Source: Raillietiella orientalis
Lineage: Eukaryota
Direction of reading: 5' to 3'
Assembly (NCBI GenBank): GCA_036172245.1
Contig: JAYWIR010000035.1
Coordinates: forward strand, 434,001-498,000
Length of the DNA: 64,000 nt
Part shown: one piece after another, positions 16,622 through 49,839 of the stretch
Numbering within the stretch: position 1 is the first letter of the stretch
How the letters are laid out: each line of letters begins with the position of its first letter
Program-made: the position numbers and the translations under genes
The notes under the pieces: generated by a model
Databases searched by the model: none
What the model was told of the DNA's origin: nothing
The model's input: only the letters and a program-made list of their open reading frames with translations

Positions 16622-19600
16622 TCAAAGTTCAGTATGTGACATTTCTGCAAATCAAAATTTTTTAGTAAGCAACCAGAAACAAACCCTATTTATCATACTT
16701 TTTGTTTGTTCTACCGATGCATTTTCTGTTGCATTTGCTGATACTTTTTTGGAATGGAGGTTTTGGAGTTGCTTAATTTCCTTGTCATAATCCAACCATT
16801 CAGGAATAATTCTCATTGCAGCATCTAATTTTGCTTCTTTAGTCATAGGATTGTTGCACTAAAATAGTTAAAAATAAACAAATAAAGTAAAATAAATAAA
16901 TAAAATTTAAAATAAGCACATCGACATTCAATGATTACCAAATCAATAGTTTTTGCATATTGCTTTGAGGCATCATCACACCAGGTCTCACACCATAGCC
17001 ATTCTTGAGGTAGAGATTTAATGGTAACTTGGTGTATCATATTATTGGGTAAATCTTGATCCAAGTTTGAAAGTGAATTTGGATCTTGACTAAGACCTTG
17101 ATATTGACCTCTTAAACGATCACCAGCAGCAATGTGACGGAACTTTTTCAAGTCAACTACATACAAAGCACTAATATGATAAGGTCGATGCCCTAAGTGG
17201 CTTTTCCAATAGCCAGATTTCCAAAACCTGAGTCAAATTCAGAGAATTAGAAGTTCATTTCATTTAAGAATACATATGTACCTATAGCCATCCATTTCTC
17301 TCCGACTATCACAGAAGGGTGTGTATCCATATGGTGCTCCACCAAGATCAAATTCCATAAGTTCTTTCATATCTGCACGAACCACTTGGTCTGCATCCAC
17401 AAAAATAATTTTTTTTACATCAAGAGGGAAAAGAACATCAAGAAACAAAATTTTATATCCCCATATAATTCTCTGTTTCTCAGTTTGCTGAAGTAACCAG
17501 CGAGGCCACTTATATTGCACTAATTCATACTGAAATCCATAAACTTGAGCCATATATGGCAAAAAATCCTGTGAAAAATTCCCAAATGCAAGTTCTCGTG
17601 TTGTGAATAGCTTACCTTAAATGTTGGAGATATAAAATTCTTCAGGAACCAGAATTTGACAGGAGTTTTTGTATGTTTCAGTACTGATAACATCATAATA
17701 CGCAAGAATCTTTCATAGAGGTGACCAGATGCAACAGAGAATATATTGATTGCATCATTTTCCTGTTGACTTTTAACTCTCAAGGAGCTATGCAATAAGT
17801 TTCAGGACGTGTAGCAACATTTATACAAAAAACATCAATGGCAATAAGTACCTTGTAATGGAGTTCCATAAGCCAGGATGAGGTTCATCCTGCAGCAACT
17901 CTTCATGACGTTTATCATATTTTTTCATCACTTTTACGCGAATTACATGGCTCTTAAACGAACTAATCACAACTTGAACACCTTTGCCTTCAGTCTGCAC
18001 ACCAGTTCCTTCATAACTGAAAAAGGACAAGCTTGATGCATTTAACATACTAACGCACTTCACTATATCGTAGATATCCGCTGATCTGCCTTCTCTGAGT
18101 TCCAAGTTCCATAAGCCTGGATTAGCTTTCAGTTGAAAATAACCAAGATTAGCCATCACAATTGTGTCCACTTGCACAGGATTCTGACTTGTTCCCAGTG
18201 TGAACTGAAGACCACGAGGAGGATTGCCAGTTTGTTGATCAAAACAGTGTCCCTCTAACAGCAAATGTTCCAATTCAAAAACGCTAAATAAAACAAGATT
18301 GTTGTACTGCACTTTGCTCCATTACCTATGTACAACACTGTCCACATCAGACAAATAAATATTATCCAAATCATAAGCACTTTGAACCACCTCAACAAGC
18401 CAATTATCTGGAACATGCATATGGAGAGTCAGGAGTGCATTGGGGGGCATATTCGCAAATGTAGCAAATGGGCCTCGAACAGCATTATCGAAAAATCTCA
18501 CCTCAGGTTCAAGTACAAAACGGTAAAAACTAAAGTGCAAATATAAGCATTTAATAGATAGCAAGTTACCTTTTCAGAGGCACTTCACTGTGCTTGACTT
18601 GAGGATTTAATACAATAGAAAAGTCACCATTGATCACCTGCCATAGAACTGAAAGAATTGAGGACAATTTCTGTGCCCCACGTGATAAGGGATCCACAAT
18701 GGCAGTTACATCAAATGTTGAAACTCCTTTCTGTTCATGCTGTAGATGCATAACGCTGAAAACAATATCACATAAAGCAAAACGAAAATTTCATTTCATA
18801 CCTATGCTTAGTTTGCAACTCAGGTAATTTATGTCGAGGTTTAGAAGATGGGTTAGATAAGATCAGAGAAGATAATATTGGGATCAATAAATTCATATCT
18901 TTTTTTGATGAGTCAGCATCAGCAAGCACTGAAATCATTAAATTACAAAACAAATATGTCATTTTCAAGCACCTTTAGCTTCTAATAATGATGTCAATTT
19001 CTTAGTAATTTGTGAGTCCAGCAATTTTTCGATTAAATGAAAGTCATTTTCAGCAAAATGCAAGACATCTGAGTTGAATGGTCCAAATACCCTTCCATTG
19101 GCCACAACACCCCAAGTGTCTTTAGGAAAAAGCAGCGCTTTATTTATGAGTGCATGATGAACGAGAAGAAAATGCAGACTCTCATTTTCAATCAAATTCT
19201 CCATAAATGACATATTGACATCCTAACAACATGTACTGTAGCCAACCACGGCATGTGAATGAAATCTGCCCCTACTTACAAGAGTGTGCAAATCGGCCAT
19301 TCGTGTATTTCCAGCTAGTATGGATAAGGCAGTTGACTCTTTAAAAAGCTCGAATAAGAATTTCAACCTCTGGTCCATAGGCAAATGTTTCATCCCCACA
19401 TGCATAGTTGTAAGGAAATATTCTTCTTCTGTATGCAGATGTTTGGGAATGTTGAGTACAAAAACCATCCGAACAGAATAGGAATTTTTCTAACAGACAG
19501 AAAGAGAAAAAGAAAAAAACTTAACTGGAATTCAGTGTTTTCATACCACATGTGAAAGAGCTGCTAATATTAATGCACGATGTGCTGCATCTAGTGGATT

Positions 19601-22600
19601 TACTACAAGCCATAAGTGATGTGATCGTATTTTTGGTGCTTCAGAAGATAATTCTAGATAAGGGAATGTATGCATAATTGTCATAATCAGATCAACTGTA
19701 TTGGCAGTTTGCAGATCATCTATGGAACTATCAAGATGGTGGCCGCCACAGAGATCGACAAAACGAGGCTGCAAATCATTCAAAATGTGTTCATTGAGTC
19801 TAAAATAAATATTAACAAGCAAGACCATGTATACCCAGATTATAAATGTAGGACATATAACAATCCATAAAACAATAAACACTGTAATTTTACCTTGGTA
19901 AAACATGTGGCTGGCTCAAAAAAAAATCAAGTACATCATCTGCATCATTCAATTCATGTTTTGAAAGAGATTGTGTCAGTGATCTCGTAATTTTTGATAA
20001 ATAACTAAAAATGGTTTCCTCAAAGGCATCAGCTTTTATTTGCTTTTCAGTCAAGGGTACTCCATTAATCAATACCTGGAAGCTGTTTATTAATAAGAAA
20101 CACACTATTGACCCAGGCTAGCAATACCTTTGGAAATTTGCTAATTCCTACACGTTGCAAAAAATCCTTTGCAAGTTGACGCCCATAATCATAATCAGAA
20201 TCCACACCAAAGACTTCTTCCAAATCGGTATTCGGAAACTGGGACTGGAAATGATTCAACAAATCTGAAACCTGAACTGGTTTATCTTTTGAGCTGGCAT
20301 AAATCTAGACCAAAATTAATGATGAATTATGAATCATCACTCTAACTTCAGTCAGGAATCCTAAGGCATCCTGTGCACTTTTTGTTTCAGTTATATAATT
20401 GAAAGCTTCTATGAATGCAACTCCCACATCTTTCTTGCCAATTACGTTAACATCATGACTGACAGCAAACACAAAGCCTATACGCAAAGGAAAACGATTT
20501 ACGTAAAAGGATTCCAACAATTTCACTAAATCAAAAGATGCTGGATCAGATGGATTAAGAATCAACACCTGGATAATTTTTAGCTCATAAAACTTTTTTC
20601 TTAGCAGGCAACTCACCACATGGTAAATGTTCCGTCTTACTGGACGAAGCATACCAGGAAAAAGAGGCTGGAGCAATACTTTCAAAGATGATGGCCACAT
20701 GGAATAAAAGTCATCTACTTCAATATTGTTGATATATTGTACAGCACTATCGCGGAAATCCAGTGCAAATTCTTCTTGATCATCCTGTGTACTTAATTGC
20801 AACAACTGCTTTAGAATAGACTGACTTAATCCTGAGAGATTTTTATCTTACATGTACACTTCAACATTGTGGATCAAGAGAACATACCCAATTTGTGCAC
20901 AGATTCCATGATATGCAATTCATTACGGATGAATTCAAATAAAGTAGACATATCTAATGACTCAACATCAAAATAAACACCATTGACAAACAAAGCAGCT
21001 TCAAATGGAGATAGATTAAGCTCTTCAGAGAGAATTCTTTGGTTTTGTACAATTTCATTTTTGCGCTGTGGACTAACAATTGTTTTGACTAGTGACCTTG
21101 CCTGGAAGAAAAAAAATTGCCATTGAATTACTGTTACTTTGCTTTGATTTTCAAAGTTACCAACCAGTAAAGGGAAGTTCTGGCTCAGAGTTGCTAATTC
21201 CTTCAAAACAAGTTCTGATGAGGAACTCATGATCCTCTCTACTGCTTGCAAACCCAGATCCTGTAGCTCCCAAATCTTCAAAGATGCAATTTCATTAGTT
21301 GATTCAATCAAGAGTTTCCTAAGTTCATCTAAATTTGACTGTTTCTCAGGGTAAAGTTTCCTAAAAATAATCACCTAATTTGAATCAAATATTTAATAAG
21401 CACACATGCCAAATGGCAGATGAATTCAATGGAAATCTGCCCTTCATGAATACAATCTTAACCACCAAATATAAGCTCCCAAATTAAAATGTAAGCTTAT
21501 CAGCAACTTAGTATATGTGTAATGTGACAAAACGTAATTAATTAATAAATTTAGCTAATTACAATGATAGTGTGAATCATTTATATGCATACAAGAGAAT
21601 TTACATTCTTGTCTACATTCGAACTTTTGACACTTAGGATTCTATAATCAGACAACATCCCTACAATAAATAAGTAGAGCAGGCAGTAGGAATATAAATT
21701 GAAACTAGTAGCATAAAACAAATAACTTTAAAAGAACGACTTGGAAAAGCAACAAATATCAGTTGTTATCAATTTGGTATCATTCATGGTTTAATATACA
21801 AAATATCAAACCTTAATTTCTCAAATATGAAACCTTCAATTTCATCCTCTTCTTGTCTCCCAGATAAGTTCTCTTCTTTTACATTAACTTTTGTATCATC
21901 TTGAGCTCTGTATTCTGTAGACTTTATGGCTAACTCTACACCATAACCAGATAGCCAGACCTTTCTATTGGGAATTTCCTAATAATAGCATGAATATGAT
22001 CATCACTGGCATAAATCTTAAACTGCTACATAAAAAACTAACATGGACTCTGAATTCAAGTAAAAAAGAAATATTAATAACACTTCATTAAATTTGCAAC
22101 AAACCTCCCGAAACAAATTTAATAAATTCACACAGTTAAAAATTCTCATTTGCAATTTTCTATAAAGATATGATCACAAAATCCTAAGAATAAATGAAAA
22201 CTTACTGTAGGTACTAAGCGATATACGTAGTTGACATCTCCTCTTTGTGCTAACTCTTTTAAATAATTATGTGCTTCAAGAAAGCCTGCAGCATTTAATG
22301 CACTATAAAGTATAATCCTAAAAGGAGCATTTTCACTTCCAGGATACTGATGATCAACTGCTAGTATTGAAGGATTTTGTTTACGAGCATCAAATTTTGG
22401 TATCTCTGTTATATTGCAAATAATGTGCCCATAAACATCAAGTGCTACTGAGCACTCTTCGGGAATCTTCCTATCTTCAACTATTTTTCTAGACATTTCT
22501 ACTTGGGCGGAATACAGTCTAAGGGACAAAGCAAATTTTAGCAAACTCAATTTGCTATCGCTTAAGTGATTCCGTGCAAAGGGTAAAATAAAATTATTGT

Positions 22601-22884
22601 AAACATCCTCCTCATTTTCTAGGGTAGATTTTTTTTTTTTTTTTAAACCCAATTGTATGCATAATTGCAAACTTACTCATATCCTTATTTTTAACATACG
22701 TCGCTGCCTGCTCAATGAATAACCAATAGAAGCTTTTATTTTCATCACCTAAGAATTCTGCAGCTTCTAGTAACAGTGATGTGTACTTCCATTTTGCAAG
22801 CAGCACTGTACTAACTGACTTTGACGACTCTCTTTGAAGGGACAGAGGATAAAACAGACACAAAACGAAAATCTGCTTTATCAT
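16622..22884 (-). CDS. UGGT: UDP-glucose:glycoprotein glucosyltransferase, complete, 22 exons, 1514 aa
   Basis: Signal peptide [66 protein letters not shown]24 domain with [58 protein letters not shown] and WLWCETWC; C-terminal HTEL. The 21 GT-AG introns are all phase-consistent and the exons sum to 4545 nt. Confidence 0.97.
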
Positions 22885-23096: not shown

Positions 23097-24781
23097 AATC
23101 ACCGCGATTAGTTATTTGCAGTCGGTTCCTTTTTTTAGTTAACAGATTTGGGATTGCACTGAACCCCTCAATTTCCACTAAATTTGGTGGGGGAAATACA
23201 ATTAGAAACTTCTGTACTATGGCATATAATCCAGGATAGTGTGGGTACCTGCTTTTGAAGCCAAAATTGTTGGTAGCCCTCTTTGAATTTAAATTTCAAT
23301 CCATCATTTGTTCTTAGTTCTATCAGTTCATCTTGTAATTTTGGAGATTATCCTGTATCAGTACTCGAAAAGGGATCCTAAACCCAATCAAGTATGTTCA
23401 CATTGAGAACATCTTCAAATCGTTGATTTAAGTTAGAATGGAGAGCCTCTGCGTTCTGACAATAGGTAAAAAATTTTTCATCGTGTTTTCCTAATGTTGA
23501 TCAATTTGGAAATTGGCTGGATTTCCCACGTCCGAAATTTCGTTTGTACACAAAAAGTTTCGCCGAAAAACGCAGAAATAACGGTTTTTGTTTTGATTAA
23601 GTTCAGCTCATCGCCTTGGAACTATAGATCTGTTTCATTAAATTTATTAAACAAGTCTGTCAAATAAGCTATGCCATTTTTGAATTCAATAGTGTTGAGT
23701 CGTACAGCCTTATCATGTTTTTCTAGGAACTCTAGCACAGATTCAAAGAGTTTATAAAACTGATCCAAACAGGCACCTTTAACAGGTGAAGAAGCAGCAA
23801 ACGATTGGAGTCTTCATCGTTTTCAATACAAAGCTGTCTAAACGTTCTATCATTCAAGGAACTGCTTCTAATTTTGTTCGTTGCTTTAATGACATAATAT
23901 AATGATCTATTTAGGCGATCACTCAGATTTTTGTCAACTAAATGTTGACAATGAATGACACAGGGCACAGATAATGCATTTGGTACCTCTTTTTTTAAGT
24001 ATGCAAGAAAGTCGCTGTGGCGCCCTGTCATCGTTAGAGCACCATCAGTAGCAGTTGAAAGATATTACTCAGGGGAATTTTTTGTTCTTTAAAAAACTCT
24101 TTCAATGTATGATATATTGATTCTCCTTTAGTTTGCAAATTTTTAGCAAATAATAATTCTTGGCCAATTTTTTTCTTTTATGAATCTCACGTATACTAAA
24201 AGTAAGGCTTCATTTGCTGGCAAAGTTGACTCATCAAGCTGTATAGAGAACTGGGATGTTTTTAAATACCCACATAATGAGTCTTCAACATTTTGAGACA
24301 TTTCATCAATTCTTCTTTGCACTGTATTATTGCTCAAAGAAATTTCCGTGGTAATATCAGATGATGGCCTGTATAGCACAGTGCTTATTACCTCACTTAT
24401 AGCTGGTAGAATTAGTTCTTCGCCAATAGTCTGTGGTTTTCCCGATTTAGTAAAGAAATGTTGTAAGAAGCACGCAATCCACCCTGTTTGGATGCTATCG
24501 ACAAGAGTTTTTCCAATGTCGGCTGTCTGTTTTCCTTAATTACTTGAAACTTAGGTAAAACTTTATCCTTTTTATCAGCTTGAACTTTTGTCATGTATTC
24601 TAGTCGTCTTGAAGGTTTCATGGCGTCATTTTATCAAATGATCCATAAGCCTTTAGTTATTAAACTTTTTGGCAAATCAGGCACATCGGTAATGTGTTGT
24701 TTGTAGGCGACTGGATGAACCCATAGTTGAAATATTCAATATTATATTGTGCACGTTTTGTCTTAGGTTTTGCCTTGCCAT
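23097..24781 (-). mobile_element. hAT (Buster/Charlie, ZBED8/SCAND3-like) transposase pseudogene with frameshifts
   Basis: BED-finger start QYNIEYFNYGFI...PMCLICQK...NDAMKPSR; ISLSNNTVQRRIDEM; FSIQLDEST; DGALTMTGRHS; CVIHCQHL; LLTKKRNRLQITNRGDL. There are multiple stops and frameshifts, and I did not recognise TIRs. Confidence 0.9.
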
Positions 24782-25299
24782 TTCTCTTAAATCACAAAAA
24801 TTGCTCTGCAAACATTGTATTTTTTCAATAAAATCTTTAATTCTCCGTTATGTTCATTCATTTAAAAATTCATTTTAACTATATGCATTAGGAAATGCTG
24901 ATATTTATGCATATTGACATTCTTAAAAATCAAGTGGTTATTCTCTCTCCTCAGTAGTGTAGAGTCCACTCTTTCTGTGCATATGAACTTTTCAGAAAAG
25001 TCAAATAGTCGAAAATAACAATTTGATCAATTCTCCTTATTCCGCTTGGAAGAATCGGTTATTAACTTTCTTTGAGAGTATTGGTAGAACTAACGAATTT
25101 TGCGATGTAATCAATTTCTGAAAGTTTAAAGAATTTTTTGTATTTGCGGCAGGAAGAGCAGTCTTCTTTTTATGAAAGTTCAAGTTTCTTATTGTGACAG
25201 CATTTTTCAGTGTTTGTGAAGAAATGTAGCTAAATCATTATCAAAATTGCTATTGATTAATTGTCAATGTTTTTATTATTAATTTTCGGCCAACGTTGA

Positions 25300-25700
25300 A
25301 AAACTTTCTCTTTTTTCCAGAAAAACTTCCTATATTCCTGATGTTGCTTTTAACCCTTAACCTTGGCATGCTTGTTTATCGAAGTGATTTTTCTTTGAAG
25401 ATTAATTCTAAAGGCTTACACTGTAATAGTTTTAGATCCTTAAAGGGTTCCAGCTTTTTAAAATGAATTTTCACTGAAAATGTGCATGCTTAAAGTATTC
25501 ATTTTTCAGTTTAGCCGCGTTTTAAGACCCCTTTCAGATTTAGCTCAGGTGCTGCAGAGTAAGCAGTCTAGGATATATAAAGATTTAAAGTATATTGACT
25601 CACATTACGAACAATTTGATTTTGTTTTTCAAAACAAGATGACTATTTTAGATAAGTACCATACTCTTTAGATTTATGATCATAATTAATATTACGCGTA
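25300..25700 (+). mobile_element. Old hAT transposase fragment (ZMYM1/Tip100-like)
   Basis: FSRVLRPLSDLAQVLQSKQSRIYKDLKYI resembles the IL..T..LS..LQ.K..D helix of these transposases. Confidence 0.4.
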
Positions 25701-26992
25701 TAAATTCTCTAGTTCAGAAATTAAAAGTCCTCTGCTGAAATTCGCGAACACAGACTTTTCGAGAAGTTTACTTCTGCTGCTATAATCTTTCATGATTGAA
25801 CCGAAAGTCTGTAATTATATTCCGGTATTCCGAATCCCAACGGATACTTAACATCAGCAGAGTAAACTTGAAATTCAGCTAAATACATATTCTGATTCTG
25901 ATGGAAAATAAAATTTTGCACTTTTTAAACATATGAATTAGTAAACCTTTTTCCATTAGCTTCATCTTCATTATTTCTAGAACTTCACTTGTTTCACTTG
26001 CTTGTCGCTTATGATCACTTGCATAATCTTTATACCTTCTATCATTGATGTGTTTTTGCGAGCTTTCTCGAATGAAGGTTTTTAAAATGATATTTAAAAA
26101 TTTCCATGAATTTCTTTTTATTAATTATAATGATTTTTAATACCTTGCATTAATGTGAAATTAAAAAGAGTCATCAAAAATAAAAAAATAGAAACAAGTT
26201 CAGAAACTTGCAGGATGAAAATCATCCTCTCAGAATATAAATATAGAATTTATAAATTTCAATAAATCCCAAATTCCCATTCAACGAGATTTGTGTGATA
26301 TTAAGGTTGCTATTCATAAGCTTATTCCTGAGCTGACTATAAATATCTGAAACCCACTGATACTAGATCAAGGCAATCACTTTAAAAAGTCATAAAATTT
26401 AGTGAGAAAATTATGCTGCAAAAAGAATTGTGGTTATTCAATAGAGTATGAAACCTGAAGTGCATGATCAATGAATACATTGAGTTGCCATTTAATCTTT
26501 TTCCTAAAAAAATCTCCAACTCAGTTTCAGTTTCAACTTTGATTATAGGTTGTGATTAATAATTTTCCTTTTTGATTTCATTTTTCTATGACGAATTTTC
26601 AAGTTGATCGAGTTTCGAGAGTCAAATATTTTCAAAAAATTAAAATTCTTTGCTGTGTAAGAAACCTGGCTAGCGTGTATCATAATTTATCTTTTGGACA
26701 CATGTTGTGCAACCTTTTGGCCGGTTTTTTAAACTTAAGCGTGTAGCCATAGGTATTTGGTTTTTATAATGCAGTCACATATGTGGATCAAATTAAAAAA
26801 GAATCTCACACATGCATACTGTGGAAGTGATTTTGTTCGATTTTTTTCAGCTTCCTTGTGAGTACTTCTAATATGTAGGAATGAAGCAGTCTTTTATGGA
26901 AAACATTGTATAAGGTTGGGAATGTGCATGTACTCTAAATGGAAATGTAACAGTGTTTTCAGATGTATTTAGAGAATTGTGCCTTCTGAAAT

Positions 26993-29900
26993 ATGTCTTG
27001 GTGTCATGCACGCCCGTTTTACGTTTCCCGAACCGTTTCGAGATTTTTGAAATTTCAAACCAGAACAACGTATATAGTTTTGTAAGTATAATGGGATTGT
27101 AAATACCCGAGATATATAACGAAACTATATAGAGTGAAGAACTCTGAATTTCCTATGCATGAAACAAATATAACTTGTAAAGCATTTTTCTCCAAAAGAT
27201 TAGGAATGAATTAGGCAATGAAATTATCACATAGATTACTTAATTACCACACCATATCTATTCGAGATAGTAACGATTGATTTTAGGAAACAGTCCTAAG
27301 GATTGATCGTTGCAAAATTGTGTTGTCTTTCAATTATATATTATGTATGATTTGTTGTGTTGATATTTTGTTGCACATATAAGTTTTATGAATTGCAGCA
27401 GCAATAATCGATTGTTAGAATCCGCATTCTAAGTACTCATTGCGTGAATCAGTATCACGGTAAAACGTACATTCAAACAGTTTGGGGTCTTGTTCAATTT
27501 GGATAACTGATTTATGTATATGATAGAGTGATCCTTTAGGAAGAAAACAAAAGCAGTGCACTGTAAGCTGATTTGGTTGAATTAAAGTTCGTACACTTGC
27601 TGCTGGGTAATAGAGGAGCAAGATTTTGTTACATAAGAGAGGAATACATCTTTATAAAGCTATGAAAGTAGATGCAAACTCATGATTGATGGGATGGTGA
27701 ATTCTCTTTTTAATGCTGTGAAACAAATTCTTGTTTCAAAAACTTTTGCTACAACTTGCATAGCTTATCACGTGAACAGCTCACTTTTTTCACTTAGTCT
27801 ATTCTTATCATTCTCTCAAAGTATTGGGTTGAATTCTCGAGTGCTGAATTTAATTATTTGCAAGATATAGTTTCATTATGTTCAATTTACTTATCTGTGT
27901 GATAGAGATTCCATGTTCATGTTTTTAAGACAGTCCAGTGGAAGATAGTTGTTTTCCTTTCATTCACTTATTCGGAGAGTTCTAAAATTTCCTATTTTAA
28001 GAGTCTTGGAGTAGCTTCAAGTCAAATTGTGTCAGGCATTCTGTAAATGGTTTGATATTTATGCATATATGTTCTATATTTCTAATTAAAGCAAATGGAT
28101 TTGGGTAACGGATCTTTAGATGTTATATAGTTTACTGTTTTGGGTTGATTGTGAAATAGTAATCAGAGTTAATAGAAAAATTCTAATGCAGCAAATGTGT
28201 TTTCAGTTCAACATGGATGACATTGTAAATTGAAATTCTAGGCAAAATTTTCTTTCAAATAATTTCCAATAAATATGAATCCTAGATTTATTCATCTGTA
28301 TAACAGCTGTGAGAATTCTATTGGTTTTTAAATTTTTTCCAGTGATTTCTTTTTTTGTGTGTTCTAAATCTTGAATAGAAAATGCAAATGAATGAAGTGA
28401 TTTTATCCTTTCTCATTGTTTGGTGATCAGCAGTGAATTGCCCTTAGTGCTTATGAAGAATAGAAAATATTCTGAGTAAATGATTGTCTTTGTATATTAT
28501 TGCAGGTTCTTTGAGTGTTTCTTGGTTTCATTTCTCAGTCCAATTATACGTGCGGTTTAATTGATGGATAATTTCCCTGTAAATTCAGGATTGGTGAGAA
28601 AGAGAGAATATGATTAGCCAGAGAATAAATTTGGAAGTCATCAGACATAAATGCTACCAGATGCAGTATAAATAAGAAAATTATAAGAAGAATCGGTCAA
28701 GGTTATTTAAGGGATTGATAATTAAAGAGAAAAAAGAATCTTATGTGGATAGGAGGATATAATTAACCAGAGAATGAGATATTGAATTCATCATGTTGCA
28801 ATGTCTTTACGCATACCAAAGAAAAATCATTTAAAAATATTCACCATATTTATTCAATGTTTTCTTTCAAAATTGCTAGCATATTTAAAAATTGAATGCA
28901 GGGAAGTCTTTCAGAAGAGATTTTTATGTACATACATAACTTCAAATAATCAAATTGAATTCCAGATAGAATAAATCAAATTGAATTGAATTCATCTTTA
29001 ACTTTGTTCAACCATTTGAGATTTCAAAAATCTTTTTTCATAATATGACTTGGTTAAATGTGGTCAACCTTTGTTAATTTTTGATTGTTATTTCGTGGTT
29101 ATTTCTCCTCATTGTTTTATTTAATTTGTTCTAGAATCCCCGAAATTCCTGGTGCTAGTGCTGATATAAGTTTATTATTTGATATTAGAAGATATCCAGA
29201 TTTTAAATCTTTAGATTTCAAGGAATGCTATTTTGCCATAGGAAGGGCTCTTTTTGAATATGAATCAAATATTAATGAACTTGAAGACAAAGTGAAAAGT
29301 AAGAGAACAAATGTGGATTCCTAACTATGTTTGGTTTAATAAAACAGTGCAATGTTTTGTGCTGCTTGAATCTTTTAGTAACTATTATATTTATCTGGTT
29401 AACAGTTTTCTATGAAATAATGTTTTGGGCATAGAAAATCATCTGACAAAAATTGCGAATTATTGCAGATCTTTTATCCTTACTTGCATGTTCGTGTGTT
29501 CATATTTCAATTTGGGATCAAGGTGATTTAACGATTTTTCGAGCCTATAATGTGAGTCCTAATACATTGCAGATGCCTGCTAAACTACTTTAGCATGTTT
29601 TATGGTACTGTTTCAACAGTAGTCAAAATCTAATAATTCTTCATATATGACAAAAAAAATGGCTAGCCATTAAAAAAAGTGTTATTTGTATCTAATGCAT
29701 ATTTTTAGGTAATGTCTCAAATGACTTTTCAACAGTTGTTAAACCAATTGAAAAGTATAGTGTACCTCTCGAGTTTTCTTTGTGTACATTCAAAGTTTTG
29801 CATTACGCACGACATGATCTCATTCCTGATAACCAATATTATCCAGTGTATCATCATGCCATGAAAGTTTTAAATATGAAATATTTGAGTACTCCGATTT

Positions 29901-32098
29901 ATCGTGCCATTAAGGTTATTGATGTAAAATTATAAAAAGTTGGGTCATAACTTTTTTTTTATACTAAAGAATATTCATGGAAGTCAAGGAGTGACAGATG
30001 AACTGCAGAAAAAGGTAATCAGGAAACTTTTGCTGGAAATGGAACTGCGTGGAATTGATGAAGTAAAAAGTAAACGGTTGCAGTTAGACAATTGTTCGCA
30101 AGAACTTCAGAAAAAATGCGCACAATTTAAAAAAAATTTAGAGGTGAAGATTTCTAAACCTTGTTTAATTCTGAAGCTTTTTTTGTAGTTATCGTCTTCC
30201 CAATTTTCCTGCAATATTAACAACCCTTATATAGTCAAAGAGTTCCCCCCAAGTTTACTGTCAGCAATGTCTGCAAATAGGTAGAATGATTGAGTAAAAT
30301 TTATTAAAAACATAGATTTTTATTAGTAAGATGCCAGAAATGGGACCATGGAAAGTCACATTGAAGCATGAGGTCTGTCTTCCCTTCCTTGAATATTGTC
30401 CCGATCGTATTTTACGCTGGAATACATGGCAAGCATTAGTTTCATGTGGAATGGTACTCACAGAAACGGAAAACAACAGCCTTACCTTAGAACAAATCAG
30501 AAATTTGAGGTAAAATAGTAAAACGCAGGTACTATGAATTGAATTAAATAGACAGCAGCAAGCAAAATTGTTGGGATATCCAAATTATGTGACATTATCA
30601 TTGAACACCAAAATGGCTAAGAGTGTGGATAATATTTTGTCAGTCCTTTCAACTCTTGCATCAGCTGCCAAATTAAAGCAGGAGGAAGATATTAGTGTTT
30701 TGCAAGAATTTGCTCTAAAATCTGGATTTAAAGGGAAATTAGAACTATGGGATGTACCATATTGGCGGCGTAAACACAAATCTTGTTTTCAGTAATTTAA
30801 GCATGTATTTATTATTTTTTGTGGGTTTATACTTTTTGTTGCAGATTGGATGAAACTGATGTTTGCAAATTCTTTCCATTATCTCATGTTTTAACACAGC
30901 TGTTTGATCTGTGCAGTCGCTTATTTGATATTAGCTTTTCTGAATGTACTAATGAGGTCAACACATGGGATGATCAAGTAAGGTTCTTTAAAGTGAAAGA
31001 TAGCAGTGGCAAGCAAATGGGGGCTTTCTATCTAGATCCATGTATGAGGTAGTTGATTATTCCTGCAAGGTGAAAATTTTACATGTTTCTGTAGATCAAA
31101 TAAAAAGTTACCAGTATCTGCTCATGGGACAACATTAGCCATTCTTCCTCGAAGTGCTGTGCTTGGCACTGAACCTCTTGTTACCCTTATTTTTAACTTC
31201 CGACCACCAAATCCAGGACAACCGATTTTACTTACTTTCAATGATATGCTTTCTCTTTTTGAAAAGGTGAGAAATATGAGTGTTATGTATTCCTAGCAGA
31301 AATTTTTTCTTCCAATTTTTGAAGTTTGGAAGTATGCTGCAGCATGTTCTTAGTGAGGTTGAATATAGTGACTTGTCTGGAACAGCAAACATGGAATGGG
31401 ATGTAGTTTGCTTTCCAGCTTACTTTATGGCTAACTGGTCAGCTATACTTACTAAATGTCTGTGCTTGATATTATGCTCACATGAAGGTTACTTAATACA
31501 CACATGTTACGGAACTTTAGTTGCCATTATGAAAATAGAAATCAACTGAGTGATGAACATTGCCAGGCTTTGATTTTTGCTCATCTGCATATGGCTTCAT
31601 ATGATTTAATGCAGGAATTATATTGCAGCCATCTTGATTTAGAGTTGCATTCCAGGTAAGTTGTACTAATTTTAAAATTTCATGGGATATCTCTCTAGTT
31701 CTACTTTCTGGTTGGATATAGTCAAGAGATTGTGGCCACAATATTTTCCATTTGCTCTAGAAAAGAAAGATCAGCATCCATGTTCTTTTGAGCAGATATT
31801 TAGTGGAGGTTTAGGAGCTGGTTACTATTCAAGAATTTGGTCCAAAATGCTGGCAGCAGATACCTTTGAAAAGTTTCAAGATCATTACCCAGATGTTGCT
31901 AAAATCTCTCAGTTAGGACAAAGGTTAGTTTTTCTATTTTTCTTTTGCTTATAGTTGCATAGTTTTCGCTCCAACTTTTTGATTCATGGAGGAGCTTTGG
32001 AATCGTCAATCAAGTTCCACGAATTTTTGCAGCGTGATCCATCTCCAGAAGCTCTTCTTAGATTGTTGGGAATCTCTAGCAAGTCCACAGCAAAATAG
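26993..32098 (+). CDS. Peptidase M3 / oligopeptidase A-like protein, predicted catalytically inactive, 721 aa. Exons: 26993-27081, 29135-29298, 29709-29914, 29970-30143, 30189-30280, 30327-30509, 30552-30791, 30845-31048, 31095-31266, 31325-31437, 31488-31655, 31699-31923, 31963-32098
   Basis: GPWKVTL, LEQIRNLRQQQAKLLGYPNY, LELWDVPYWRRK, FFPLSHVL, GAFYLDP, MEWD, HPCSFEQIFSGGLGAGYYSRIWSKMLAAD, FLQRDPSPEALL. Joining exons 1 and 2 gives YIVLIPEIP. The exons sum to 2166 nt in one frame. Confidence 0.92.
27420..28050 (+). mobile_element. Old hAT transposase relic in intron 1 of the M3 gene
   Basis: KQFGVL; GMVNSLFNAVKQ...FATTCIAYHVN (~G..NSV...LK...C.CH..HL); LRQSSGR*LFS...IRRVL (~LRH..TRWLSL...I.RVL), in the expected order. 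Confidence 0.5.
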
Positions 32099-32799
32099 TT
32101 TTACTGGAAAATGAAGTGTCATTCTTTTATTGGGAAATTAACATTCAAACCTTGATCAGTTTGATGGTAGAAAAGTCGTAGAAGTATTTAGGTACACTTT
32201 CAATTTATATAAGTGCATTATGATACCAGTAATATGACTATGAGTAAATTGAAAGAATAAAACCCATTTAATTAAAGAGTTATATTGGTTGACTTTTTGA
32301 TTAAGCTGTTTTCATTCATAAATAGTTGGTGCTTTAGATATCAGATGAAAGTGAAAGAACAGATTTTTGTCAAACTCAAATATTCTCAATTGCTCATATG
32401 CGTACATGTTTTTTCATATGCACTCACAGGTTTCATCTAATAAAAATTGACAATTTGGAAGTGTTAAAAAGCTGCGTCACATCGTATTTTTATTCAAGTC
32501 CACTTATGTCCAAAGTTTCTGCATCCAAAACAAAATGTATTTGTGGTTGTGCTCAATTTAAAATGCTTTTGTTTTTGGATTGCAGTTGAATTGGGATAGA
32601 ATTGAAAATTATGGATATGAAAAATGTATACATCATCTAGAAGGAATACTTAGCTAAATATAGGGATTTTTAATATTTCTCATTGACTTTGCGGGCACCT
32701 TATTTGTAATGATGATTTGTAAACTGACCTTTATTGTTTTACTTTGAGTTTGTCAGTATCATTGCCTTTTGATTGGGATCCTAGTGAAGAATCAAAAAC

Positions 32800-35150
32800 A
32801 ATGCTTTTCTTGTTTGTTATACTTTCCATTTCTTTTCTTTAAATATGAGCAAAACTGTAAGACCAAAACCCTGAAGAACTTGCAAACATCTAGAAATATG
32901 TTCCAATGAATAACTGAAGATTAAAACAATTGAGGCTACACAAAGAATGAGAAATCCGAAAAACAATTCTAGGATGAATTTATTCGATGTAAGCTGGAGT
33001 CTTTTTCTTAAATTTATGGAATCTGATGGCTCCAAAATTTCCAAAAACTTGCCAGGTATTCAACAGTGGACACCCACAAGTGTTTTTTTGAGTCTCCGAA
33101 GTAATGTATTATTCATTAAGGCGCAAATATTGTATTTATTTTATTGTATTTAAGGTAGCGGAAACTAGTACTGGCTTCTCATTTCTAAGGAGTCCAGGCT
33201 TATGCTCAGCTTGTTTCAGTACTAGGGTATCGTGTTGATTGATTTTCATAAAAAAATTATAAAAAATTATGCATCAAGGCCATTCTCAGTTTTTAATTCC
33301 TTAAATAACGTATCCGTTTATGGCCCACTTATAGCATGATTAATTTGTTTTTAAAATGAATAAATAGCATGTATAAACATTTCAGGAGACCCAAAGTGAA
33401 GAGAAAAAAACTGAAGAATTTTTTTTTTTCAATCAAAATTTTGTCTTGAGGAGCAGGGCAGTTTAACTGCCAACGCATAAGCAGCATTACATAGAAAAGA
33501 CTTGGTTGACCAGCAGCAGTATATTTGTATGTTTAGTAACAACGTAATAGTTGTAATACCCCCTTCTTTATCACTGCCATGTTGCATAAAATGTTACGGA
33601 TCAACTTTCTCCATGTGAAAAGAATTACAAATGCCACATGTTGCTGACGAATGTCGGAGTGAATATCGTTGTTCGCAACAAGGGTAATAACTTTTTCTTG
33701 AACTCGAATAAAATTACTTATTTCTTCGTCCCTTTATGAAAGGTTCCATGTGAGGAAGTGTTGTAAATAATTCTTTCACGAGCTGTAAAAGCACATGTTT
33801 CTTCTCTCTTGCTGAAAGACAGCCTGGGGGTGCCTGTGCTAGCTTGCATTTTATCGTTTTCGGTTTCCGTGGTTTGCAAAATCTTCTCAGTAATTTCTAA
33901 GTGAATTTTCTATGTAGTTCAGTCTATACAAAGTTCTTCATCAAGGTCCTTCTCCAATGGAGTTTTGAAGCAAAACGGTTGGTTGTTAATTTGTCAACAA
34001 CATTCTGTTAACTTGGAAAATCCATTACAAGCATTTCATCTCAGCTGAGATGGAAAGCATCACTTGTTTTGAGCACAAGACTTTCTCTGTGCAGAAAATG
34101 TGCATTCATGGCTGAAAAACAAACGACTTTTTTCATCTGTTTGTTTGTTTTCTATTTCCATCTTGCTTCCTTTAAGTGCCACATAAAAAGATGCATCAAC
34201 GCATCTAGTCAATTCAGAAAGACTTTGCGGTATTGCCCAAGGGATAGTTTCCTAATCTTGAGAGTTTCGTGGAGATTGCTGTTACACATAATTTCCCCAT
34301 GACCAGGCCCTTTGACTTTTGCACCCCTACAGGCAATGCTACAGAATATAGTCAGCCTTTACTGAATTGTGGGGTCGGATGCGATTGTATTTCACACAAA
34401 TCTGCATCGTTCATGTCGTACAAGTCGTGCATATGGCTGGAGGACTGGTCCGATGTCACATCAGCTGTCTGCAGTCATCTGTTCATGAACATTTTTTCGT
34501 ATATACAGCAATGGTTGCTGGGAATAGGTACTGAAGAACTCTGTAACGACACTCAGGCGTGCAGCATTATCTTTACCAATACTGTCTCACCCTGCTTTTC
34601 CTTAGGTAAAGATGGATGACTAGGAATTCCAATTACTTTACCCTGAGGAAAATGATTCAGGGAAAATTTATAAATTGTTCCCTGAATATTTAATAGGAGC
34701 TTTGTTATAATCTTTTCGTGCCTGTTTCATTTTTTGCAATTTTATACCAGATTTATTTTTGAAGAGTAGTTGATATCTACGGAGGAATGCAAATTTGTTC
34801 ATCAATTTACGTTTTGCCTCAGGGTTCTTATATAGCAGTCGCATCTGTAATCTTCGGCTTTTCTAGATTTCTTTCCGAAGTTCTATTCCATCGTTTTTTC
34901 TGCCAGCATAATCATTGCTGCATCTGCTTCTTTTTAAATGAAATGCTGCTATCCTGCATGCACCGTGCAAAATCCATGTACCAAAACTCAAGGCACCCTT
35001 ATGGTCACAATGCCCTCCTTTGACCCGAACGGAAGACCTTTCTTGGCCTATAACTGACCGAAAATGTGGAATTTTTCGTGGGGAATTGCCTGCCCTTCAA
35101 AATGTCTTGTGGTTCGCATGGTAGCACGTTTTCGCCCGGAAACGGCTCCG
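32800..35150 (-). mobile_element. Highly decayed hAT (ZMYM1/Tip100-like) transposase relic
   Basis: Ordered remnants: LPCEPQ...FP and WYMDF...ADAA (TTF-type zinc finger), ADVTSDQSS (~DETTDIS), HFLHRESLVL (~C..HRLNLVL), LRRLKK..LWVS (~TRW), LQLTSNKFILEL...ISRCLQ. Confidence 0.45.
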
Positions 35151-37607: not shown

Positions 37608-38627
37608 TTACAGGAAGTGGCGATCAATAGATTGGATCCATTCGTAGACACGGTCACATTTGATTCTCTTATCGAGACTGACATCAGAATTGAATAGAAG
37701 CTGCTTCAACAAAGTATTTTTATCTTCACAGCTGATGACAGAATTTTCGTAATAGGAAACAGGTCTTTTACACGTTCCAGGTTTTCCGAAAGTTTTTAGC
37801 AACCACCGGTAATTCAAGTACTTTGATACATGAGTGACTTGTATCCTTTTTTCAGGGTCGGGATCTAAGATTCTCCTCATCATGCGTATCAGCTTTGGAG
37901 AAAAGTGAGAGAACCTGTTGGGGATTTTTTGAAGTTTCCTTTTATGCCACTGGTTGAACTGGTAGAAATGAGGGTCGGAAGACTCCGCTCGTTGCCAGGG
38001 CAGCGAGCCCGTCAGGAGGACATAGATCATCATAGCAAGACCCCACACATCTTGAGAGGGTTCCATACCGTAACTTTCATTAAGAGGTGTTTCGCAGATC
38101 TCAGGAGAAGCGCATGGCAACCATGCGTTCTTCTTCTTCACTAGATCTCCGCGTCTCCTGGTTGTGCCAAAGTCACATAACTTCACACGGGAAAAGTCGC
38201 TCTCGAACACCAGAATTTTTTCCGGTCTCAAATCACCGTGTACCAAGTCTTTGCTGTGCATGAAATCCAGAGCTGAGATCACTTGTCTGATTACCAGCTT
38301 TGTTTCCATTTCTCCCAAGCTCTGTTCACTCAAGTATGAAGTCAGGTCACCGAAAGGGGCGTACTCTTGAGCAAACAGGTAACATTGGTCGTTCTGGAAA
38401 GCCACGTCGTATGTGCTGAGGATGTTGCCATGAGGACTCAGGTAGTAAGAGTAATGGAACTCCCGATAAAATTCACTTTTCGACACTTTGTGCTTGCAAA
38501 GAGCCTTCAAGACCACTTCGCTCCTTGTTCTCAAGTGCTCCACAAGGTAGAGGTTCGTGGAAAACCCTCCGAAAAGTGTGTGGATGATTTCATACTCGTC
38601 CGTGAGGTTGACCTGGGAAATTTCCAT
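37608..38627 (-). CDS. meng-po: SBK-family Ser/Thr kinase (meng-po/SBK1-like), intronless CDS, 339 aa, atypical catalytic loop
   Basis: EVVLKAL, FYREFHYSYYLSPH, TYDVAF, FAQEYAPFGDLTS, HGDLRPEK, VKLCDFG, LTGSLPWQRA, and C-terminal DRVYEWIQS. An in-frame TAA two codons upstream supports ATG 38627 as the start. The symbol is a family-level call. Confidence 0.9.
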   Translation of the reverse strand: MEISQVNLTDEYEIIHTLFGGFSTNLYLVEHLRTRSEVVLKALCKHKVSKSEFYREFHYSYYLSPHGNILSTYDVAFQNDQCYLFAQEYAPFGDLTSYLSEQSLGEMETKLVIRQVISALDFMHSKDLVHGDLRPEKILVFESDFSRVKLCDFGTTRRRGDLVKKKNAWLPCASPEICETPLNESYGMEPSQDVWGLAMMIYVLLTGSLPWQRAESSDPHFYQFNQWHKRKLQKIPNRFSHFSPKLIRMMRRILDPDPEKRIQVTHVSKYLNYRWLLKTFGKPGTCKRPVSYYENSVISCEDKNTLLKQLLFNSDVSLDKRIKCDRVYEWIQSIDRHFL

Positions 38628-40049
38628 GAATTACTGAATCAGAAATTTATCAAACATTTACGTATACGAATATGCCTTTATGGCTTTTCAGCGATTTCTA
38701 ACCGCAACTCTTTCTCTTCTGCACGAGGGAGAATACGATGACAATCCCTCGGAATTTAACAAATTACAGCACTGTGTGCCGCGGCCACGGCAGTTTGTTT
38801 GAAATTATCCGCAAGCAATCGGTTCAACGATTAATTAATCCGTCTTCTGCTGCTTACAGCTTTTGAAATCATCTACTGTGCCCTTAGGAATTCTTTGCGC
38901 TCGCTGTGACCTGGACGCATTACTGGTGTGTTTTACGAGTCGTGGGTGCTTTGCACAGCTGAGAACCAGAATAAACTTTTTTGCTTCAAGTGAGATGTCG
39001 AGAGAGAGGGTTGTTTGCTTCCTACACTTCTATCGGATTCTTCAACTCTCTTATTAATAAATATCCTTAAAGAAAGCAAACAAACAAACAAACAAAAAAA
39101 CCAACTTTTGACAATTTGGCACGAGTCGGTAGACGGATAACAGGCGTAAGTCTCGGAAATGCGTTATTTTTAGTATCCAGAATTAATTCGCTTGCAAAAG
39201 TGTAGACACGAAGAACTTTACATTAAGAACCACATTGCACGCTAAGAAACACACTTTTTAAAAAAATGCATTTCAGATGACACGAGCGTCTGAATCTGGC
39301 AGCTATCAAATAATTAGGCTCTTTAGTTTCCAGCAGTGCTCTCCTTGACTGGCAATGCTGATTGACGCAATGGCATCTTGACTCAGAGTTCTATATTTAA
39401 TTATACACATTTCAATTACATACATATTTTTTGTGTGTGTGCAATTGCAGCAGAATGCTCCCGTCGAATTCACTAAAGGGTCCATAGAAACAGGTTGTGG
39501 AGATGCCGCTTCCTTGTTTTCGCGTTTCGTCATTTCTGGTCCAGAGACCACGCCAATCCTTTTGCCAGCTCGGAAACAAAGTCCGCTGTACAAATTAAAT
39601 TCCTACGGAAATGCCCACTCTCCTCCCAGGAGAGGCTCGACTACTCCTTATCCTCCTTATTCTAAACATGTGCACCGTCTTTCCTTTTAGGAGAACACCT
39701 ACCGACGAACGTTCTCTTCCTTTGTACGTCACAACATTCATAAATTCCACCTTGCATATCCAATTGTCACAAGCTAGTCGATCCGTCGTTTACCTCTCGC
39801 AGTGTCTTGAAGATTTTAAGGCCCGAAAAGAACAAAGAGATTATTTATCGTTTCTGTACATGGAACGACCATGCCTGGCCTGGCCTTTTTTTGAGTGTTT
39901 GTTTCTAAAATCACGGGGTCCATTGTGCAGTTTTCAATGCACGTATGAGGCTCGCGCTCACTCACAAAGCAAGTATTAAGTTGGGAGTAAACTCGTTAAA
40001 GTTTAGTGACGACTTCATTACGTTGGGACGGGAAGGCCTATCCTGTAAG

Positions 40050-43527: not shown

Positions 43528-46500
43528 GTGCACTCGGAATTGCATCCCCTGCCTCCAATGCATCCTGATTTTTTGGAGCCTCATGATGAGTATGGCGGCG
43601 GTCAAATTTCGAAACGGATTTCTGGTGTTGCCGTGTTGTTATCGCACGCGGGTAACAGATGGGTTGCCCATAGGTCCGTGGTGATGGGCTTTCTGCTGAC
43701 CTGCGTCATCAGCATCACATCATGGAAAGGAACACTTCAAATCGGCGTTACCGATTGGCACTGCACACGAGTTCGACTGCCCTGGTCGAATCTCAGCTAA
43801 TGGAGGGGGGCAGTCGATGAGAGAACAGGCGTCGTCTCGAGCAACGTGGTGGTAATGGTGAGTAAGGTATGGAAACCTGGCCGTTGTCTCAGTTTGATTT
43901 TCCACGTGTCTGTTCGGAAGGTGAACTGGATTTCCTAAAAAAGCAAAACAAAAAGGGAATACGACTAGAATGCTGGAGTAAAAGTCGAAAAACGAATCTT
44001 TTTACGATTTATAGCTTATTATGTATATTCTGAGTAAACAGAATATGCGTGCGTGCGTGCGTTTTTAATTCGCCATGCTTTTTCCAGTTTGTTTGCCCGA
44101 TCATCCAAGATAAAAAAGGATCCTAAGCTGCATACATCTTGTATCGTTCCCGATGACCTGCTTTTTGATTGCCATTCATCATTTTCGTTTTCCAAATAAG
44201 AGACAACCTGAATCTGTAGACAGCTTGTATGACTTCTACGCAGTTTCTCTAGAATTGCATTGCACGATCCAGGAACCGATCAGCAAATCCTCATTCTGGA
44301 TGGGAGACGACGAATGACGTAGACAACGAATCTGATCTCTTTCCGGGATGTGTTTCGCATTCTACGGTGTTTCCTCTTTCTTCATCACTCTAATCTCTTC
44401 GAAGCGGATTCATTTTGGTCGCGTGAAGAGAATTCCTGGAATTTCGAAGCAGTCGGCTTTATTCGGGCACGCTGCCTCTTTAATGGCAAGTGCTGTTGAT
44501 GTTCTGTTTTAGCCCTCACAGCTGCTGCTCACGGTGCAATGTCAGCGATAAATATTTATCGAGACATTTCAGATTTGTATAGGCACAGCGTATGCGTCTA
44601 CATTTCAGTGTCGAGTGTTGCTCCACATGATTGCACGCTTTGTTCTTGTTTTCTTACAGCTGCTTTGTAGATTATTCTATTTGAAATTTGTAGAAGCGAA
44701 CGCGATTCATTTTGGCAAAGGAGGAGGGTTGCTTCGTGGAATCCGCCTAGTATTTGATCCCACTATCGTCCAATGATCCGCAACACTTCTGGGTTTCCCA
44801 TCGTCCAGTTTGTGAGCGCAGAGGCCGCTGCCAGCTCTCGATCCACGATAGAAAAAGGAACCGCCTCAGACGCTGTGCTTCTTTCTCATGAAGAACTTTC
44901 TGGATTCTTTTGAGACGTTTCCTACAATTCCTTTCTCGATACAGTGTGCATTCGGGCTGCTTTTCCCGTCTCGGACAGGCTGCTTGCAGGAACGAATTCG
45001 AGCTGGACGAGCCGGACGAACCAACGTTTACCCAAACCTGTCGGGAGTCCCGAAAAGGCCCAACAGTTCGTTGATCGTCCAGTGCTTTGGATCAAAACAC
45101 TTTGCTTCTGCTTTCCTTTCACGTACTTAGGATACACGTTTCAGTTTCCGTGCATGCAGAGATGCATTCTGCCCGGGCAACGACGACATTTCTTAATTAT
45201 CGGATAACCCCGAGTTCTGAGTGGTCACTGGCTCCCCACATCACTTCTCAGCCCACGGACGTCCCCAGCTGGTTACACTGGGGCGTTTGTCAACATTGCC
45301 AAGTACGAGGAACATCCTTGGGATTGTGGAAACTAGTAAGATAACTGATGATTCCCACAATTCAGAAGCGTTGCGGTCACTGAGATCAGCTACAGCCACG
45401 GTCAGCCGGAAAGGCGAGAGATCGGATGAAGAAACGAAACAAAACAATATGCAGTTAGGATGCGAGCTTAGAAAGACCGCCATCGGTCAAGCAAAAGCCT
45501 GTGCTGCCACCTGTGTCTGGTGGTGCTTCGTGATGTCTCCTGGCACGTGTCCCGGGAGGAGCCATCTCTTCACTGCTCTCGAGAGACACTGGTGGCGGTG
45601 GATGTGGTAAGTGAGCCATTCCCATTCCTCCTGCCAGCATCCCGAGACGTGACGCCGCCATGTTGCGACTCTGATGATAGGACCTTGATCTTTGCTTCAG
45701 GCTGTGAGTCTGTTCTCAGGAAAGGTGTGTCTCGTTAGCTTCTCTGGAGTATCTTCTGGGCGATATTGGGGTGAAGAGGGCTTGCTTTAGGCGCTCTCAG
45801 CCGGGACGAAGCCCAGCGCAATCTGGAATCGGGATCGCAGGAAGGATTCGGTACGGAATAGGAATCTTCCCCTAAAGTGGCAGAAGTCGGCGACTCTGCT
45901 GTTGCACTGGGGCCTTTTGTGCAACGCGTGCCGACATCATTGGACCCGGGGGAGTGTAAGTCCGAACTGCGGCAGGTGCAGCGAGAGTGAGTCCCTCCCG
46001 CACCTGCTCATGGAGTGTTGCCCTCCACCCCATGTGAGAACCCTTCGCCACGTCCTTGTGGATCCCCGAGGGCAACCCCAGAGACATTTTCGATGGCCTC
46101 TTCCTGCGAGACGCCCTCACGCCGGCCGCATCCCAAGCAGCACTTTGCCTCCCAAGCGGTGGGATCGTGGCTGCACGGAGCAACGTCAGAGAAGGCCAGA
46201 ACGACAGGGACGCCATCTATTGTGCTGTCCTCTTCATGAGGGCAGTGTCAAGATGGACCCATCTGGGAGCCTCGAAACAGGAACTTGCGGGCATCCTTAC
46301 AAGGATGCAGAGGACATCCTCCAGCGCACAGTGATCCCTTCCCCAACCCTCCCATTTCTTTGACTGTATGTTTTTTGTTTTGTTTTTTTCTTTTTGTTTG
46401 TCTCCCCTTCTCCTGCGCTGTCGTGGACAACCTCGCCGGCCTGCGCGCCGGCTCTCGGCAGGTTCCTTCGGTACATTTTGTGACGTGGCAGGATCACGCT

Positions 46501-46540
46501 CCTGCCACTGACGCCAAAGTTTTATTTTTAATAAATAAAC
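43528..46540 (+). mobile_element. Decayed, internally deleted L1/Tx1-like LINE ORF2 plus 3' region (copy A)
   Basis: APE-like SGVAVLLS...GFLLTCVI (~43620); RT-like AVGFIRARCL (~44450) and LPSTRNILGIV (~GGLGI, ~45300); C-terminal zinc finger WGLLCNAC...PNCGRCSESESLPHLLMEC (45905-46020); T-rich 3' segment, stem-loops, and AATAAA at 46530. Confidence 0.7.
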
Positions 46541-49330: not shown

Positions 49331-49839
49331 TTCTTTTCTTTCTTTCGTTGGGGGGCGGAGAGAGGAAAGTGAGGTTCCGGCTGAGCTCCATTCCTCTTTG
49401 TTTCCCACGAGAGTTTAATCCGCAGTATGAGATGCACCCGAGGCTTCCTCGGTTGGTCCGTTTGTGATTTCAGGACCTCCCTCCCCTCCTTCGCCCCTCC
49501 CTCTTTTGATCAAAAGTCGTGAATGTCTTTCACGCTGTGGTATCAGCTTTGCAGCGATGCAGCTGCCACTTGCAAGAATTTCTCGGTCCATAGTCTTCTC
49601 CCTCAATCCTCTCATCTTCCTGGACGAACCCGCAGAAGATGCTACCTGCTTGTTTTCCTTTCCCTTCTTCGGTGGTCGCTTCCATGGTCACGGAGGAGGA
49701 GGCAACCTCCCGGGAGAATCAGAGTGAAGCGGGCTTCAGGAAGATCTAAGACGAGGAAGGAAAGAGGGAGGGAGACAAGCACCAGGGATCGCGTTCAAGA
49801 ACTCAACAGCCAGCGCTCACAGGGGAGGGGAGGAAGGGT

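Follow-up and report, generated by a model that had tools for sequence, protein, structure and literature searches.

The solved proteins that come closest, by both sequence and fold, to the one described here are the M3A oligopeptidases OOP/TOP1 (4KA7, 4KA8) and CyOP/TOP2 (4PUT) of Arabidopsis and the bacterial OpdA/PrlC. In OpdA, a flexible loop spans residues 600–614, and its Tyr607 is a substrate-recognition residue (PMC5124237). OOP homologues have been treated broadly (PMC9291397), and the accessible portion of that account makes no mention of inactive animal forms. In Drosophila, CG11771 has been reported to be an M3 non-peptidase homologue that lacks key catalytic residues (PMC13523200, 2026). 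Knockout flies are viable and male-sterile, with an age-dependent loss of photoreceptors, and display intramitochondrial aggregates, cristae defects and swirl mitochondria. Loss of CG11771 raises HTT72Q aggregation and its overexpression lowers HTT96Q aggregation, while the overexpressed tagged protein sits in mitochondria, with an uneven intramitochondrial distribution in muscle. The authors suggested either residual activity or a role as a regulatory subunit like Mppa, cautioned that the phenotypes, which loss of many true proteases also produces, may be indirect, and took CG11771 as the neurolysin orthologue (Table 1 of that paper, 7/14 sources; PMC13523200). As far as the text is accessible, CG11771 appears in PMC12340828 only as an entry in a candidate table, and a single M3A non-peptidase homologue is tabulated for Lucilia (PMC4826915); a mention of 'cytosolic oligopeptidase A' in PMC12660746 was set aside as irrelevant.

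Here, we describe a gene of Raillietiella orientalis (assembly GCA_036172245.1) that lies in a 64 000-nucleotide stretch of contig JAYWIR010000035.1 (the window) and is very probably, on sequence grounds, the arthropod orthologue of CG11771. The connection to D. melanogaster was made through a D. busckii record of that name (P0332, 'CG11771, partial [Drosophila busckii]'), which falls inside the same catalytically dead clade and shares 32% identity with the window model over 667 aa. The short introns might point to a nematode, but Col_cuticle_N has no match in the genome, a weak negative, and R&R cuticle domains have 14, so that an arthropod is the likelier source. The original prediction, made from the DNA letters, had put the gene forward as uncharacterised biology. 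This has been overtaken: the fly orthologue is already catalogued as a pseudo-protease, and its knockout and overexpression have been published together with the same MPP-α analogy (PMC13523200), so that the gene itself represents no new biology. We found no description of the clade-wide loss, the affinity to OOP or the N-terminal motif reported below in the literature within reach of our search, which took in few subscription journals and no supplementary tables.

The gene was modelled by three-frame reading and a splice-site search, with the start codon and the splicing deduced from homology. The 13 exons (Table 1) join into 2166 nt that encode 721 residues with a single terminal stop, and all 12 introns are of the GT-AG type, ten of them 39–58 nt long and the others 2053 and 410 nt, as had been claimed in calling the 721-residue frame and its 12 splice junctions intact. 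Six of the 11 exons scanned match PF01432 (Peptidase_M3) with E values of up to 0.1, three of which pass the Pfam cut-off alone, and the top BLASTP match of the protein is Penaeus P0261 (41% identity, 707 aa). Neutral decay was simulated in 2000 runs per level of divergence: the frame and the 24 splice dinucleotides came through intact in 59 runs at 2% and in none at 5%.

Table 1. Features of the M3 gene in the window (positions are those of the window; residues are those of the 721-residue model)
Feature	Position	Strand	Basis or remark
M3A-fold pseudo-peptidase gene, CG11771 clade	26993-32098	+	Gene model, PF01432 matches, BLASTP
Exons 1-5	26993-27081, 29135-29298, 29709-29914, 29970-30143, 30189-30280	+	
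Exons 6-10	30327-30509, 30552-30791, 30845-31048, 31095-31266, 31325-31437	+	
Exons 11-13	31488-31655, 31699-31923, 31963-32098	+	
Predicted mitochondrial presequence, residues 1-26	26993-27070	+	Composition; start codon inferred
Clade-specific motif YIVLIPEIP, residues 27-35	27071-27081 and 29135-29150	+	Clade alignment; split by intron 1
H461-G462	31123-31128	+	Site of the Gly-Ala pair conserved in active enzymes (97-98%), degenerate in the clade
E507-K508	31261-31266	+	Positions of the first zinc His and the catalytic Glu, both replaced
Intron 9, 58 nt, phase 0, GT-AG	31267-31324	+	Within the former HExxH helix
S511	31331-31333	+	Position of the second zinc His, replaced
C537	31409-31411	+	Position of the third zinc ligand Glu, replaced
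Former flexible substrate loop, Q634/L640/R647 for OpdA His601/Tyr607/Tyr614	31793-31834	+	Alignment; numbering of PMC5124237

The neighbours of the gene are functionally unrelated to it. Upstream and head-to-head lies a UGGT (UDP-glucose:glycoprotein glucosyltransferase) gene on the − strand (16846–22676 and on towards ∼23000), with Glyco_transf_24, UDP-g_GGTase and Thioredoxin_12/13/14 domains. Downstream, a 340-residue stop-to-stop frame on the − strand (37611–38630) encodes an almost full-length Ser/Thr kinase domain (Pkinase, E = 7e-36) with a catalytic loop reading HGDLRPEK and a glycine-rich loop that looks atypical; we take it to resemble PKDC/SBK-type kinases. Broken ORF pieces on the − strand at ∼23200–25300 (23735–24064 and 24146–24535) have no Pfam match at an E value of 0.001 and presumably resemble a transposase of the hAT/Buster type (ZBED5/SCAND3-like). 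The GC content is 50–62% over 45001–64000 compared with about 30–36% around the M3 and UGGT genes; 17 of the longer stop-to-stop frames in this GC-rich part gave no Pfam match, and it is possibly a large intron or an intergenic isochore.

The helix that would carry HExxH is interrupted by intron 9 and reads LFEK-FGSMLQH (the hyphen marks the intron), that is, EKFGS at residues 507–511. Residues Glu507, Lys508, Ser511 and Cys537 align with the His, Glu, His and Glu of active M3A enzymes, which bears out all four of the replacements originally proposed (H to E, E to K, H to S and, at the third ligand, E to C) and leaves the protein with none of the four zinc and catalytic residues. HExxH is not encoded in any of the six frames over 26001–33000. 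An alternative exon that restores the motif, a possibility raised with the original prediction, is not foreseen from the genomic sequence either, as the 18 GT/GC-AG junctions near intron 9 that are in frame and open all fail to yield HExxH and retention of the intron leads to a stop codon. The distal motifs, which had been called intact, did not stand up in the same way: OpdA His601, Tyr607 and Tyr614 correspond to Gln634, Leu640 and Arg647. Judged by its sequence, the window protein is thus without the hallmarks of an active M3A oligopeptidase, with HExxH, the third Glu that follows about 29 residues further on and the loop His/Tyr residues all absent, and we regard its assignment as an inactive CG11771 orthologue with high confidence.

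The loss extends well beyond this genome. Homologue searches, a profile-library search and cluster look-ups gave 382 proteins. After the removal of 11 on account of their length, 371 were aligned to the window protein, and a further 31 that were shorter than 600 residues or had gaps at any of the four sites were then set aside, which left 340. Profile scores assigned 251 of these to the group of the window protein and 89 to that of the active enzymes. At the site, HExxH occurs in 0/251 of the former versus 88/89 of the latter; this split is not independent of the motif, since the sequences used to build the active profile carry it, but the tree agrees with the split. Among 49 clade representatives at less than 55% identity, 22 keep none of the four residues, 21 keep one and six keep two; in the full clade, 24/251 members keep three, such as P0003, which has all three zinc ligands and a lysine for the catalytic glutamate. 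The 251 proteins come mostly from insects. Named arthropod members include beetles, flies, moths, wasps, decapods, an ostracod, a springtail, a millipede, a sea spider, a tick and mites; those from outside the arthropods include a tardigrade (Hypsibius) and molluscs (Lottia, Mizuhopecten and Dreissena), and there is no nematode among the named members.

A tree of 60 rows (28 chosen and 32 hand-picked active sequences, with NLN, THOP1 and MIP rows left out) was calculated with IQ-TREE in quick mode with SH-aLRT support only and midpoint rooting. The 23 dead rows, including the window protein, form one clade (SH-aLRT 100), within which there is a group that includes the molluscs (95) and another made up of ecdysozoans (89). 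Penaeus, at 42% identity, is the nearest row to the window protein, the branch of which is fairly long (1.07). The dead clade was recovered again in a FastTree calculation with 127 rows. The simplest reading of these alignments and trees is that the zinc site was lost once, before the split between ecdysozoans and molluscs, which would make this clade-wide loss ancient. The window protein scores 817 bits against the clade profile versus 518 against the active profile, and it carries the clade's majority residue in 63 of the 72 columns that are at least 80% conserved in the representatives versus 28 of the 205 most variable columns, a gradient that is partly built in and that shows the gene to follow the constraints of its clade. 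Together with the presequence-like N-terminus and the knockout phenotypes of the fly orthologue, this agrees with the earlier claim of a conserved mitochondrial pseudo-peptidase rather than a young pseudogene.

P0095 (Aphanomyces stellatus), the single exception among the 89, is an OpdA-type protein from outside the protostome clade that lacks HExxH, as does the unnamed fragment P0102; this is apparently an independent inactivation. The bichir and reedfish sequences P0041, P0187 and P0188 are OpdA-type proteins that retain every catalytic residue and carry a hydrophobic stretch close to the N-terminus, and represent a little-noticed active vertebrate form.

Against PDB sequences, the clade profile scores 577 bits with OOP and 571 with CyOP, compared with 329 for THOP1, 318–325 for neurolysin and 319–320 for Dcp, and the D. 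busckii protein scores 239 bits with the OOP type versus 138 with the neurolysin type. By this ranking of bit scores, which is not a phylogeny, the clade looks closer to OpdA and plant OOP than to neurolysin and THOP1, and with an OpdA/OOP-like rather than a neurolysin-like ancestry the human orthologue assignment used for the fly data becomes doubtful. A PF01432 profile search of the genome (210 Mb, 491 contigs) gave at least two M3 loci (six matches among eight candidates). None of those found is of the neurolysin/THOP1 type, and the window locus is the only one among them that is matched by an active OpdA-type query. The second M3 locus (contig C39, ∼1571400–1576100, − strand) has HEMGH and the third Glu intact and, from its motifs, is presumably MIP.

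AlphaFold2 models of orthologues have mean pLDDT values of 90.4 (beetle, 39 sequences) and 94.0 (Penaeus, 98 sequences) and best match OOP and CyOP (4PUT, Z = 46.4, r.m.s.d. 3.0, 666 aligned residues), ahead of neurolysin and THOP1 (Z = 41–42; neurolysin 42.3). According to these orthologue models, and to the PF01432 matches for the window protein itself, the two-domain channel fold of Peptidase_M3 is retained.

The positions that recognize substrate have fared differently from the fold. Across the 49 representatives, the equivalent of Tyr607 is retained in 20% and that of His601 in 6%, the Gly-Ala pair (461–462) in 14% and 10%, and the positions of Ser540, Gln541 and Glu544 in 31%, 4% and 4%. 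The four zinc and catalytic positions, which are invariant in 88 active enzymes, lie at the 64th–94th entropy percentile within the clade. Newly conserved, clade-specific residues are found instead at Pro32-Glu33, Trp276, Arg300, Arg376, Tyr591, Trp606 and Phe682. This list contains no His or Cys, and no replacement set of His, Cys, Asp or Glu is conserved at the old site. The losses and gains of the clade therefore point away from the old cleft and favour a non-catalytic factor with new surfaces. A second, HExxH-like string occurs in 37/251 clade proteins (in 32 of them at position 132, in an N-terminal helix) and was rejected as a rebuilt active site, as the positions are unrelated.

The N-terminus combines a basic leader with a hydrophobic motif specific to the clade. 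Residues 1–26 contain five Lys/Arg, no Asp/Glu and an amphipathic 11-mer, and are followed by a motif of the pattern [YF][IV]V[LI][LIV]PE, the two together occupying residues 1–35. Pro32 is present in 96% and Glu33 in 80% of the 49 representatives versus 10% and 6% of the 88 active enzymes. A Met start with the motif at least 15 residues further on is found in 161/251 clade sequences, in which the leader has a median length of 26 residues and on average 5.5 Lys/Arg and 0.25 Asp/Glu; the net charge ahead of the motif is at least +3 in 158 of these 161 full-length N-termini. From this presequence-like composition, the window protein is predicted to be mitochondrial. In the orthologue models, the motif region is of low confidence with a shallow alignment, and with a deeper one its block means rise to 61 and 87, which hints that the motif packs on the protein. 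A covariation signal between the motif and the core of the protein (effective depth about 91) was dropped as it looked dominated by phylogeny.

Beyond the sequence, the clade and the orthologue fold described above, we propose that an OpdA/OOP-type oligopeptidase lost its zinc site in a single event and was retained for a purpose other than hydrolysis. After import, the presequence of ∼26 residues would be removed, and in mitochondria, where the fly work places both the protein and its phenotypes, the mature protein would act as a non-catalytic proteostasis factor, either as a holdase or by regulating a partner protease of the mitochondrion, much as MPP-α does. Binding would use the newly conserved features (the YIVLIPE motif, Trp276, Arg300, Arg376, Tyr591 and Trp606) and not the old catalytic cleft. 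We put the chances at about even that the protein is such a factor and that clients or a partner are bound elsewhere on its surface than at the former active site. A more specific version, possible and on balance unlikely, is that in protostomes the peptidase has become a mitochondrial holdase independent of ATP, or a sensor of peptides, in which the newly evolved N-terminal motif, freed by the presequence cut, plugs the empty channel or docks on a partner protease and so gates the clients.

The strongest competing explanation, which we consider possible and on balance unlikely, is that the channel itself still binds peptides, either cleaved presequences or the octapeptides released by MIP, and buffers them or passes them on to PreP/PITRM1. 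The retention of the whole two-domain fold in the orthologue models would suit such a trap, as would the ability of OOP, the closest solved relative, to cleave targeting-peptide fragments of 8–23 residues (PMC9291397) and the late-spermatid arrest that knockouts of CG11771 and CG3107/PITRM1 have in common (PMC13523200). A conserved cleft would, however, be expected to keep some of its substrate-recognition positions, and since these are degenerate across the clade, the variant of the original prediction that envisaged a peptide-binding protein or presequence sensor is weakened. Still less probable is a structural or assembly role in an inner-membrane complex (the respiratory chain, a cristae organizer or the mitoribosome), comparable to that of inactive MPP-like core proteins. 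The hydrophobic N-terminal motif could dock on such a complex, and the cristae loss and swirl mitochondria of the fly knockout and the uneven distribution of the protein in muscle mitochondria are compatible with it, but the fly null is viable, cristae defects occur in most protease knockouts of the same study (PMC13523200) and none of the 12 PDB sequences that match the clade profile has a name that marks it as part of a larger complex. Residual or re-wired catalysis, in which some members still bind metal or hydrolyse with different residues, was left open by the fly authors (PMC13523200) and may draw on the members that keep three of the four residues and on the database label 'oligopeptidase A'; we consider it very improbable in view of the complete loss in the window protein, the absence of a conserved replacement set at the site and names that appear to have been transferred by similarity. 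A young pseudogene or an annotation artefact (a hidden exon or a wrong splice), for which only the fairly long branch and the predicted status of the gene model might speak, can be dismissed with near certainty given the open frame with canonical introns, the failure of such a frame to survive 5% divergence in the neutral simulation, the conserved columns that are kept, the lack of any junction restoring HExxH and the uniqueness of the locus in the search with the active OpdA-type query.

The comparison has consequences beyond this gene. Ecdysozoans and molluscs appear to share a single loss of catalysis, while fish retain an active OpdA-type enzyme, and many database entries bear a misleading enzyme name ('cytosolic oligopeptidase A'). 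If the holdase or sensor version is true, the clade would constitute a lineage-wide branch of mitochondrial quality control that has no dead counterpart among the vertebrate sequences compared. The N-terminal motif and the clade-specific residues provide mutagenesis targets for use with the male-sterile fly null, which makes the mechanism directly testable.

Set against the known systems, OOP and CyOP are the first matches of window exons 10 and 12; unlike the window protein, they and OpdA/PrlC have HEFGH, the Glu that serves as third ligand and the loop with its His and Tyr residues, and the alignment with 4PUT begins at model residue 35, past the N-terminal motif of the clade. Neurolysin (NLN/MEP) and THOP1 have the M3A fold in common with the clade, the profile of which scores no better on them than on Dcp. 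The 'probable cytosolic oligopeptidase A' proteins of bichir and reedfish (P0187 and P0041) are, like the window protein, OpdA-type proteins of animals (about 31% identity) and are among the active rows nearest to the dead clade, with a sister placement at an SH-aLRT of only 90, below the support mark; they differ in having the four catalytic residues intact and a different, more hydrophobic N-terminus. CG11771 belongs to the same clade as the window gene and has likewise lost the zinc motif, for which the D. busckii record has KTFGT...Q, and the drosophilid clade member P0327 also has the basic presequence and the N-terminal motif, whereas the replacement residues differ (EKFGS...C in the window) at an overall identity of 32%. 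MPP-α/PMPCA resembles the clade by functional analogy only, as a mitochondrial pseudo-metalloprotease with a non-catalytic role, and fly Mppa and CG11771 act alike in HTT polyQ assays (PMC13523200); it differs in belonging to family M16, with an unrelated fold and a known catalytic partner.
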